Positions 60,001 through 64,000 of a stretch of 64,000 nucleotides of DNA are shown in pieces. This DNA is from Escherichia coli (GTDB lineage: Bacteria; Pseudomonadota; Gammaproteobacteria; Enterobacterales; Enterobacteriaceae). Numbering within the stretch: the stretch's first letter is position 1; every line of letters begins with the position of its first letter. The stretch lies in NCBI RefSeq assembly GCF_045037415.1, contig NZ_CP173440.1; one strand, given 5' to 3'. A program made the position numbers.

Positions 60001-63000
60001 ACCGGCCTTCGCGTTTGAGCAGAGCAAGCGCGCGACCATAGGCGGGCGCTTTATCCGTGTTGATGAATCGCGGGATCTGCCACTTCTTCACGTTGTTGAG
60101 GATTTTACCCAGAAACCGGTATGCAGCTTTGCTGTTACGACGGGAGGAGAGATAAAAATCGACAGTGCGGCCCCGGCTGTCGACGGCCAGGTACAGATAC
60201 GCCCAGCGGCCATTGACCTTCACGTAGGTTTCATCCATGTGCCACGGGCAAAGATCGGAAGGGTTACGCCAGTACCAGCGCAGCCGTTTTTCCATTTCAG
60301 GCGCATAACGCTGAACCCAGCGGTAAATCGTGGAGTGATCGACATTCACTCCGCGTTCAGCCAGCATCTCCTGCAGCTCACGGTAACTGATGCCGTATTT
60401 GCAGTACCAGCGTACGGCCCACAGAATGATGTCACGCTGAAAATGCCGGCCTTTGAATGGGTTCATGTGCAGCTCCATCAGCAAAAGGGGATGATAAGTT
60501 TATCACCACCGACTATTTGCAACAGTGCCGTGTACATCGAAATACGGCTTATCAGGCGTTAAAAGATGCTTGCGATGACTTGTTTGCAAGACAATTCAGT
60601 TATCAGAGTCTTAGTGAAAAAGGTAACACTATTAATCACAAATCAAGATGGGTGAGCGAGGTGGCTTATATTGATAATGAAGCTGTCGTTAGACTTATTT
60701 TTGCCCCTGCTATTGTGCCTTTAATTACTAGGTTAGAAGAACAATTTACAAAGTATGAAATACAACAAATAAGTAATTTAACAAGTGCTTATGCTGTTCG
60801 TTTATATGAAATATTGATTGCATGGCGTAGTACTGGAAAAACGCCTCTCATAACTATGTATGATTTTAGACAAAAAATAGGTGTACTCGAGACTGAATAC
60901 AAACGAATGTATGATTTTAAAAAATATGTTTTAGACATTGCATTAAAACAAGTAAATGAACATACCGATATTATTGTCAAAGTTGAACAGCATAAAACAG
61001 GTAGATCTATTACTGGTTTTTCATTTAGCTTTAAACAGAAAAAATCAGCCACGCATTCAGTCGAATCTAAAAGAGATCCGAATACATTAGACCTCTTTTC
61101 AAAAATAACAGATAAACAACGCCATCTATTCGCCAACAAGCTCTCAGAGCTTCCTGAGATGAGTAAATATTCACAAGGCACAGAAAGCTATCAGCAGTTT
61201 GCTGTACGTATAGCTGCCATGCTGCAAGATGCAGAGAAATTTAAGGAATTACTTCCTTTACTCAGAAAATTAGGATTTCAATGACATTGTTAATTGAAAT
61301 TGTTAAGTTAACAGTCAGGTATTAACACAAGTTGAAAACTGGTTTACATAATGAAAAAACTGTCAGTTTCAGAGTTAGCTAAGCTTTATGGATATTCAAG
61401 ACAAGCCATATATGCACATATAAACAAAGGAAATTTATCTAAAGGATCTGATGGATTAATTGACTTTTCAGAGGCCCTAAGAGTTTTTGGGGAACCACAA
61501 AAAAAAGAGGATACAGTCAATCAAAGTCAATCAATTAACAGTCAAAACTTGACAGAAGTTGACTTACTAAAACGTCAAGTTGACATACTGGAAAAACAAT
61601 TAAATCAGGCAATACAGAGAGAAAATCAATCTTTAGAACGTGAATCGTTTTATCAAGAACAGATTGAAGCTATGCAGCGCTTACTAGAAGCACCAAAAGC
61701 CAATATGACTACCTTTACCGATCAGAGCTTTAAACAGGATATAGCAACGGATCCTCGGTCGGAACTAGCAACGAACTATGACGAATTGACTACTCCTCAG
61801 CAAGACAATAAGCGTATTCCTATCCCGGAGCATGTTGAACCAGAACAGAAGAAGAGAGGCTTCCTAAGCCGCTTTTTCCTTCCATATGGTTAGCCAAGAC
61901 TCCAGTTTTTTGAAGAGCCAATTTCAGTGCAAGCACTTGAAATAATGACTCCTCAAAAAACCGGATGATGTTTATTAAAACTGAATAAAACCGTGGAACA
62001 TCGCTCAATTAGTGATCGTGGAACATGAATAATCAATAAAAAGCCGTTCTGGTGCCCTATACTCCAGAACGGCTTACGTTAATATAATGATATTTAAAGA
62101 GAAATATCAAGCATTTCGTATAAGAAATTTTATGTTAAATGATTGTTAGAAATGCCCCTTGATCGAGGCATTTTCTATAAAGAATACTAAAAACTAATTA
62201 AAGCCAACCAAGTTTCAAAACAAGGCAGTTCTCAGCAATCATATTTTTAAATTATATAACTCCCAACTGAGCTTTTGCTCCAACGATAAGGCTTTCATTT
62301 TGAGTTTCTAAGGCAAATAAACCATACATCAAAGGAGAGGCCGCTGCTCTTTCTAAAGTCTGTTCATATAGTTTATTCCAAACTTTACCCCCTAGTTTTT
62401 CATACTCGATGATTAGAGTTTTGAGGCTTTCTTCTCCAAACAAAGTTACATGCCCAGCAAAATCAATCGCTGGGTCATCTATATGGGCTGTTGACCAATC
62501 AATAACGCCTGAAACAGCTCCATCCTTTGAAGCTAGTACATGCCCAGCATATAAATCGCCATGTATAAATTGGGTGAAATCTGCCCATAGAACATCATTA
62601 TCCAACCATTTTCTGTAGCGGGTTTCCAATTGCTCACTTATACCAATTTCAGATTTTACTAACTGCAAATTGTTTGCTATTTCAGGTCTTAAATCTGAAG
62701 GTTTCATAATTTTCAAATCATTTTCCCGAACTTCTTTTTCAGGAATACTATGGATTTCAAATAAGGTTTTTGCCAAAGATGTTATGTATTTCGGGCTATC
62801 TTTGTCCATATTCCAAATTATTTCATAGGTTTCAGCATCCAAATTTAAAACAGGATTATCTTTAAGTATGGGATAAGCCACTAATTCTGTAGATGAAATT
62901 CTCCAATCAGGAACCTCTACAGAAAGATGTTTTTTTACCAATTCTAAAATGCGTTTTTCTTTCTTGATTTGTTCCCTCATGCCATCACGACGAGGAATAC

Positions 63001-64000
63001 GCAGCAACCATTGTTGCCCCTTTGTATCAAGAGCAAAAACGACCTTAAAATCAATGCCCATTTCATTGAAATTCATTTTGTCCGTAAGCAACAAGCCGTG
63101 TGCTTCAGCAAGTGATTGAATATCTTGAATTGTCATTTTTAATTTCCTTTAAAGAGTTCAATAATTAATGTTCGGATTAGATTGGCTATCATTAACAATC
63201 TCTCTCAAAAGTCTTGATGATTTTGTGGTCTTTGATCTCGTAGATAATGTCAGCAATATTATCGACCAATTGCTTGTCATGAGATACGAAGATAATAGTT
63301 CCTGCATAGGACTTCATCATTGTTTCTAATGCGGCAATACTTTTTAGGTCAAGATAGTTTCCTGGTTCATCCATAAGCAAAATATTATATTTTCCTAAAA
63401 GCATTTTGGATAAAAGCAGTTTGATGATTTCACCTCCCGATAAGTCGGATAAGTTTTTTTGAATATCATTCGCTCCGATCCCCATTGAAGCCAATACTGC
63501 ACGAATTTCCGCAACTGTGTACTCGCACTCTTCCTGCATAAAGGAGAGCACAGATTTATGCGTGTTAAATTTATATCCTGTTTGTGTAAAGTAGCCAATT
63601 TCAGCTTTTGGAGATATGGTTAATCCATCAGCACGTTCTGATATCATTTTTAACAAGGACGTTTTCCCTGTTCCATTCGATCCAGTTATAGCGACTTTAG
63701 CGCCAAGCGGTATTATAAAGTTAGCGTCATCAAAGATAGTACGGCTACCAAATTTTAAGCTCAGACCATCTGCCGTAATCGGGAACTTATTGTGCAGTTC
63801 TAGGGCTGAACTTTGACGAAAACGAATAGAACGCAAATGCTCTGGTGCTTGAATATCTTCTAATGCAGCCAAACGCTTTTCCATACTCTTAGCTGCCTGA
63901 TACAGTTTTCTTTGCTTGGTGCCAGTCATTTTTGCATGCCCAAGTCGTCCAGCACTTTCGGTAGAGTTTTTGGATTTTTCTCCTTTTTTCTTATTGTCTA

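Follow-up and report, generated by a model that had tools for sequence, protein, structure and literature searches.

The mph(E)-msr(E) segment of an Escherichia coli resistance region is very probably the repAciN end of a Tn1548-derived unit, with an Acinetobacter plasmid as parent

The window analysed here is a stretch of 64,000 nucleotides (nt) of the Escherichia coli contig NZ_CP173440.1 (assembly GCF_045037415.1), and the subject is its last part, positions 60530-64000, where DNA of low guanine-plus-cytosine (GC) content carries a replication gene remnant and two macrolide-resistance genes. This DNA begins exactly at 60530, directly after a copy of the insertion sequence IS26 (59710-60529), and the GC content passes from about 51-56% before that point to 31-40% from it onwards. 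A preliminary description made from the sequence had recognized an N-terminally truncated Rep_3 initiator gene, a small helix-turn-helix (HTH) gene and the pair mph(E)-msr(E), and had held that the rep gene was cut by IS26. Profile matches, all far beyond chance, confirmed each of these genes at the positions given below, and the truncation point proved to be the exact end of IS26. The observation is thus correct, and the structure has already been described in the literature. The features are the following, one per line.

59710..60529, minus strand: IS26 copy 4, 820 bp, with 14-bp terminal inverted repeats and the Tnp26 open reading frame (ORF)
60457..61284, plus strand: chimeric ORF of 275 amino acids (aa), in which an ATG within IS26 is fused in frame to the rep remnant
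60530..60537, plus strand: GTGTACAT, one copy of the 8-bp IS26 target-site duplication and the first 8 bases of the kept rep gene
60530..61284, plus strand: truncated Rep_3/RepM gene 'repAciN', made up of the final 2 nt of codon 59 followed by codons 60-309 with their stop codon
61351..61893, plus strand: orfX-type gene ('orf543'), intact, 180 aa, matching NF038291
61894..62112, plus strand: tail of an Acinetobacter plasmid backbone from orfX to pdif, 99.7% identical to Acinetobacter backbones
62113..62140, plus strand: hybrid pdif (XerC/XerD) site of 28 bp, ATTTCGTATAA-GAAATT-TTATGTTAAAT
62141..64000, minus strand: portion of the 2,950-bp msrE-mphE dif module, in the opposite orientation to that in the 7.66-kb parent-type plasmid
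62252-63136, minus strand: complete mph(E), identified by its NCBIfam profile
63192-64000, minus strand: the 3' 809 nt of msr(E), i.e. its C-terminal 268 codons, running off the window end

The rep fragment matched Pfam Rep3_N over model positions 54-140 of 141 (E 8e-21), Rep3_C in full (E 1e-17) and the NCBIfam model repM_Acin with 390 bits over positions 57-304 of 304. The 180-aa product of the next gene, for which the name OrfX follows PMC13141974, scored 216 bits against NF038291, 'plasmid replication DNA-binding protein' (cutoff 85), and features an N-terminal HTH with weak Pfam matches. Mph(E) is full length, reaching 695.9 bits against NF012158 (cutoff 640) over residues 1-294 of 294. 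The 268 residues of Msr(E) encoded before the window end cuts the gene gave 409 bits against a cutoff of 680, over model positions 226-486; the gene is cut by the window and not in the DNA itself, it is full length in near-identical plasmids, and its in-window DNA is 100% identical to the complete msr(E) of relatives. No RNA family was detected when 59500-64000 was scanned against Rfam at E<=1.

With a probability of roughly 0.9, the segment represents one end, repAciN-orfX-mph(E)-msr(E), of an armA and macrolide-resistance unit that is bounded by IS26 and derived from Tn1548, with its parentage in a plasmid of the pTB2-2B-6 type. Hundreds of plasmids from Klebsiella, Escherichia, Salmonella, Providencia, Vibrio and Acinetobacter carry the 3,471-bp region at 100% identity. 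When 200 bp spanning the IS26/rep junction served as a probe, full coverage was obtained in 469 plasmid records, including pCTX-M3 at 100% identity, and in 33 of 5,426 complete E. coli genomes. pCTX-M3 is the prototype carrier, and it has been stated that 'Tn1548 contained IS26, repAciN, orf543, mph(E), msr(E)' (PMC13003566). The order found in this plasmid is IS26-rep remnant-orfX-mph(E)-msr(E)-ISEc29-armA-ISCR1-sul1-integron-IS26, and its Tn1548 reads IS26-integron-ISCR1-ISEc28-armA-ISEc29-msr(E)-mph(E)-orf-repAciN-IS26. The fixed junction of IS26 with truncated repAciN that marks a Tn1548-derived unit is present in the window, as is the Tn1548 gene order up to msr(E), while ISEc29-armA would lie past base 64000 and was seen only in plasmids that are 99.98-100% identical to the window over the overlap.

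The likeness to Tn1548 of pCTX-M3 extends to an identical IS26/GTGTACAT-rep junction, to the shared G613A/G614A variant of IS26 and to the order repAciN-orfX-pdif-mph(E)-msr(E) at 99.97-100% identity. Unlike that element, IS26 copy 4 of the window has an extra G341T change (R93L), and in the closest complete plasmids the far side is reduced to armA followed by an inversely oriented IS26, the integron/ISCR1 part being gone. The best relatives of the window are Klebsiella pneumoniae IncHI1B/IncFIB NDM-1 plasmids of ~350 kb, such as phvKpST147_NDM1_1659, which match positions 44284-64000 at 99.975% and in which the segment continues as msr(E)-ISEc29-armA-IS26. The host molecule is a multiresistance plasmid of Klebsiella type, in which the segment is a passive passenger beside IS26. 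The A. baumannii version of the unit is Tn6180/AbGRI3 (PMC5400096), which in global clone 2 (GC2) has the same repAciN end and an incomplete msrE-mphE module (PMC5400096, PMC13228073). The Tn6180 sequence of pAC30b matches the window at 100%; the difference is that ISAba24 is inserted in the orfX-type gene of Tn6180, at about window position 61650-61657, whereas orfX of the window is intact.

The Acinetobacter origin proposed in the preliminary description was borne out by both ends of the rep gene. The 250 aa that are retained are 100% identical, in a protein search, to a 309-aa Acinetobacter RepM (P0003), and the contigs encoding this protein are small Acinetobacter plasmids. In these related plasmids four perfect 22-bp iterons, TAAAACGAGGTTTACCTTGCAT, were found upstream of the intact rep gene, ending 56 bp before its ATG. 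The iterons together with the 5' stretch of rep occur in 77 plasmid records, 76 of them from Acinetobacter, and seven records match at >=99% (A. pseudolwoffii, A. piscicola, A. indicus twice, A. schindleri, A. variabilis and A. pittii).

The plasmid that names the type, pTB2-2B-6 from A. variabilis, is 7,661 bp long; the type has a 4.66-kb backbone of iterons, rep, orfX, orf143, mobC, mobQ and orf77, and carries one msrE-mphE module between two pdif sites, the module size of 2,950 bp agreeing with published reports (PMC7885321, citing Blackwell & Hall 2017; also cited in PMC13141974). In the published definition of the C-module of Rep_3/OrfX plasmids, repA precedes orfX and the boundary is a pdif whose XerC arm points towards the backbone (PMC13141974), and a fragment of this arrangement is preserved in the window, where the rep 3' end and orfX are followed by a pdif with its XerC arm on the orfX side. 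The rep-orfX-pdif backbone of pTB2-2B-6-type plasmids is 99.7% identical to the window. In contrast to the small Acinetobacter Rep_3/OrfX plasmids, the window has no iterons, no rep 5' end, no mob genes and no second pdif, and its macrolide module is inverted.

The iteron sequence and spacing upstream of the intact parent rep are those published for r3-T5 Rep_3/OrfX plasmids (PMC13141974). The rep gene of the r3-T5 reference pABLAC1, however, is only 85% identical in nucleotides and 88% in amino acids; the nucleotide figure rules out r3-T5 for the parent rep, which would by its sequence be a related but distinct type. The r3-T typing paper makes no mention of repAciN. As a side observation, the 7,661-bp unit recurs head to tail in the 28-kb contig VPCV01000042.1, with rep at 8001 and again at 15662; this could reflect either concatenation during assembly or a multimeric form of the small plasmid.

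The pdif site at 62113-62140 was absent from the preliminary description; 0 such sites are expected by chance. Homology of the window to the parent backbone covers 60530-62138 and homology to the module starts at 62113, with an overlap only within pdif. In the parent type the module has the opposite orientation, msr(E) adjoining orfX, and is flanked by ATTTCGTATAA-GGTGTA-TTATGTTAATT on the orfX side and by ATTTCGCATAA-GAAATT-TTATGTTAAAT on the mph(E) side. The window site combines the XerC arm of the parental orfX-side pdif with the spacer and XerD arm of the mph(E)-side pdif, and the inverted-module arrangement reads orfX-ATTTCGTATAAGAAATTTTATGTTAAAT-mph(E). As judged from its arms and spacer, such a hybrid is what recombination of the two parental sites would be expected to yield if the exchange took place at the boundary of XerC arm and spacer, inverting the module. 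Xer catalysis of this inversion is presumed; inversion of dif modules, with catalysis by XerC/XerD, has been reported in Acinetobacter (PMC13141974).

Only one of the two pdif sites of the module is present, since in the Tn1548 lineage the module homology ends at ISEc29, ~60-85 bp before the second site. The window resembles the msrE-mphE dif module in sequence (99.8-100% identity) and in the mph(E)-side pdif, whose spacer and XerD arm it shares, and differs from it in that a single flanking pdif survives, the msr(E)-side end having been removed by ISEc29 outside the window. A similar state is known from AbGRI3, whose msrE-mphE genes lie in an incomplete dif module without one pdif site (PMC13228073). 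Single-nucleotide polymorphisms of the module were tried as a lineage marker and were uninformative, the module being 99.8-100% identical everywhere. That the surviving orfX and the lone pdif are still recombinationally active is speculative and has at best a slender chance of being true.

How the plasmid was broken is suggested by a second relic. In the Salmonella Agona IncC plasmid pN18S0017 (CP082616.1), positions 305-6362 form a 6-kb IS26-bounded relic holding a cut pdif, msr(E), mph(E), a pdif, orf143, mobC, mobA, orf77, three iterons and the rep 5' end, and its rep junction lies at 6355-6363. The two junctions and the uninterrupted gene compare as follows.

pN18S0017 junction: ...CAGTTTG-GTGTACAT followed by GGCACTGTTGCAAA, the beginning of IS26
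window junction: IS26 ending ...TTTGCAACAGTGCC, followed by GTGTACAT-CGAAAT...
intact rep gene: a single GTGTACAT (locus L009, 8176-8183)

The orientation of IS26 relative to rep is the same at both junctions, and the same 8 bp at both together with this shared orientation is the signature of one IS26 transposition. The comparison suggests that IS26 transposed once into an intact plasmid, or formed a single cointegrate with one. The junction of the rep 5' end with IS26 was found in one PLSDB record only, that of pN18S0017, and in none of the one-genome-per-species contigs, the Joint Genome Institute (JGI) metagenomes or the 5,426 E. coli genomes.

The reading favoured here, with moderate confidence, is that the repAciN end and the pN18S0017 relic are the two halves of one IS26 cointegration with the whole 7.66-kb MobQ Rep_3/OrfX plasmid at GTGTACAT, and that the module was flipped after capture to give the hybrid pdif. 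A replicative cointegrate with an IS26-bearing replicon is most likely the route, being the most economical one because the insertion destroys the sole rep gene. IS26 would first have entered rep at GTGTACAT, likely forming a cointegrate that fused the whole small plasmid between two flanking IS26 copies, and the macrolide module would then have inverted through recombination between its own two pdif sites. ISEc29 and armA DNA would subsequently have displaced everything past msr(E), the second pdif included, and the block with the variant IS26 would since have been spread among plasmids by IS26. If both halves do stem from one event, the module inversion took place after capture and in one lineage.

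Alternatively, the truncation could be due to an IS26 adjacent deletion or an independent insertion, the Salmonella junction being an unrelated event and no whole plasmid having been captured. IS26 often deletes neighbouring DNA, the reciprocal junction is found in a single record, and the module orientation differs between the Tn1548 and Salmonella lineages, all of which would suit this explanation. A deletion, however, would leave no duplicated 8 bp on the other side, and both junctions fall at the same nucleotide, in the same 8 bp that occur once in the intact gene and with the same IS26 orientation; for an insertion sequence without strong target preference and a target of 7.66 kb, we estimate the odds of such a coincidence at ~1 in 15,000 per event, and this explanation is accordingly rated as unlikely.

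Several points nevertheless weigh against the cointegration scheme and the parentage on which it builds. The pN18S0017 relic is one record, far later than Tn1548, and is without the rep-3'/orfX half. The parental pdif spacers differ (GGTGTA versus GAAATT), unequal spacers are disfavoured by classical Xer recombination, and the chemistry of the inversion is not fully explained. An intact-rep Acinetobacter plasmid with the module in the Tn1548 orientation was not found among the 8 loci examined, so that the order of inversion and capture rests on the single Salmonella relic. The parent, finally, has no named r3-T type. What the cointegration scheme offers, through the target duplication, the hybrid pdif and the parent-type plasmid, is a testable account of how msr(E)-mph(E) left Acinetobacter; together with the inherited IS26 variant, these findings are a modest refinement of a known history and not a new kind of element.

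The preliminary description had also supposed that the segment entered with the blaNDM segment, i.e. that it came from Acinetobacter together with a Tn125-derived blaNDM-1 and was cut by IS26 during or after entry. blaNDM-1 lies at 47492-48304, 12 kb from the segment and within the same IS26-rich resistance region. In favour of joint entry, the two blocks both trace back to Acinetobacter in the end, and the segment is present in many NDM plasmids as well, for instance PittNDM01 and pNDM-TJ03 (PMC13003566). Yet between blaNDM-1 and IS26 copy 4 stand aph(3')-VI, ISKpn19, qnrS1 and a Tn3-family tnpA remnant, of which qnrS1, ISKpn19 and the tnpA remnant separate the segment from blaNDM, and the segment is contiguous with ISEc29-armA and not with Tn125. 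The identical junction, GTGTACAT and the IS26 variant are found in Tn1548 of pCTX-M3, where blaNDM was not annotated in the 26 kb of the record that was inspected; p19-10_01 carries the junction with no blaNDM nearby, and the junction recurs in the 469 plasmid records and 33 E. coli genomes given above. pCTX-M3 presumably predates blaNDM altogether. The presence of the junction in pCTX-M3 and p19-10_01, the shared IS26 variant and the contiguity with armA DNA are arguments for a truncation older than any link to blaNDM. Where origin is concerned, joint entry is therefore already contradicted, and overall it is rated as very unlikely, a little less likely than the adjacent deletion; both blocks might still have joined this plasmid inside a larger, pre-assembled IS26 array.

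The view that the Rep gene is probably non-functional was upheld. The window lacks its promoter, the iterons and the first 58 codons, and with them the native start; residues 1-59 of 309 are missing, so that the two winged-helix domains WH1 and WH2 are not both complete. In the solved WH1 structure of a close relative (6H24) the domain covers aa 4-138, by which 59 of ~138 WH1 residues are lost. Iterons were not found in the window even with up to 3 mismatches, none of the tandem repeats in 60400-64000 is iteron-like, and iterons are likewise lacking in all four Tn1548/Tn6180-type loci, in contrast to 3 or 4 in every intact locus. Previous work described repAciN, the end of Tn1548/Tn6180, as incomplete and as shown to be non-functional in pCTX-M3 (PMC5400096, citing Mierzejewska et al. 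2007, Plasmid 57:95), and supposed circular plasmid forms of Tn6180 were judged implausible owing to it (PMC5400096). With the iterons absent from the window, the rep remnant is predicted to be unable to initiate replication and the replicon to be dead.

An open reading frame nevertheless continues from IS26 into the remnant. The 275-aa chimeric ORF starts at an ATG within IS26, antisense to tnp26, and belongs to a cluster (P0007) of 366 members named RepM; RefSeq annotates 'repM' spanning the IS26/rep junction in E. coli genomes. A promoter scan detected no promoter-like site upstream of the chimeric ORF and fewer promoter-like sites than in shuffled sequence, and a by-eye check for a hybrid IS26 promoter found the -35 hexamer TTGCAA in the terminal inverted repeat with no convincing -10 at 16-18 nt. 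The notion that the chimera is a working initiator and the segment a cryptic auxiliary replicon, which could appeal to the uninterrupted frame with its ATG, to the label 'replication initiation protein RepM' in the 366 cluster members and RefSeq and to the 'rep_cluster_1254' that MOB-suite gives for plasmids with the chimera, is scarcely credible in view of its first 24 residues being antisense IS26, the missing part of WH1, the lack of iterons or an origin in the window and related loci, the lack of a promoter-like site and the published non-function of repAciN and implausibility of Tn6180 circles cited above.

The remnant has practical consequences, as it is routinely mis-annotated, by PGAP/RefSeq for example, as an intact 'RepM' gene, leads typing tools to call an Acinetobacter replicon (rep_cluster_1254) in plasmids of Klebsiella, E. 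coli and Salmonella and has led to Tn6180 circles being deposited as 'plasmids'. Recognizing it as a dead Tn1548 scar averts wrong inferences on host range, on co-acquisition with blaNDM and on multi-replicon status. The cluster rep_cluster_1254 is that of Acinetobacter pABLAC1 and pTB2-2B-6, and MOB-suite reports it for Klebsiella and Citrobacter plasmids, where the call is most likely due only to the dead remnant and would be a systematic false extra replicon. The deposited 16-kb A. baumannii 'plasmid' pAC30b (CP007579.1) consists of Tn6180 plus an aphA1 segment, with the orfX-type gene and its ISAba24 in the region of ~6901-9365; its sole rep is the dead remnant, which supports the published doubt about the record being a real plasmid.

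Macrolide resistance is the only working cargo of the segment, as follows from established knowledge of the two families, Msr(E) being an ABC-F ribosome-protection protein and Mph(E) a macrolide 2'-phosphotransferase. Transcription of both genes runs leftwards, and their promoter lies past the end of the window. The OrfX protein (WP_004896925.1) is common to pCTX-M3, the Klebsiella plasmids and Acinetobacter pTB2-2B-6, its accession thus recurring in Acinetobacter, Citrobacter and Klebsiella records, and orfX is dispensable, since it is interrupted by ISAba24 in Tn6180. The rep remnant, orfX and the lone pdif appear from their sequences to be hitch-hiking scars that give no support for replication.

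Four complete IS26 copies are present in the window, of which the one at 59710-60529 is the fourth. It differs from the other three by G613A/G614A (G184N in Tnp26) and by G341T (R93L), whereas those three and the corresponding IS26 in phvKpST147_NDM1_1659 have the common sequence. The IS26 at the repAciN junction of pCTX-M3 shares the changes at 613 and 614, which indicates that IS26 and the rep remnant were inherited as one block. G184N is the change of the enhanced-activity IS26 variant.

Further traces of IS26 were noted elsewhere in the window. The 12.4-kb stretch between IS26 copies 1 and 2 (30823-43264) is inverted relative to phvKpST147_NDM1_1659 (370-12820), with its flanking 8-mers swapped as reverse complements, which is consistent with an inversion between oppositely oriented IS26 copies. 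Between copies 2 and 3 lies a 1,019-bp piece (43265-44283), at the place of which phvKpST147_NDM1_1659 has one IS26. At 55133-55146 on the minus strand, adjoining the qnrS1 region, a lone 14-bp IS26-type terminal repeat, GGCACTGTTGCAAA, stands with no IS26 body and may be the remnant of an IS26 end or the inverted repeat of a related element.

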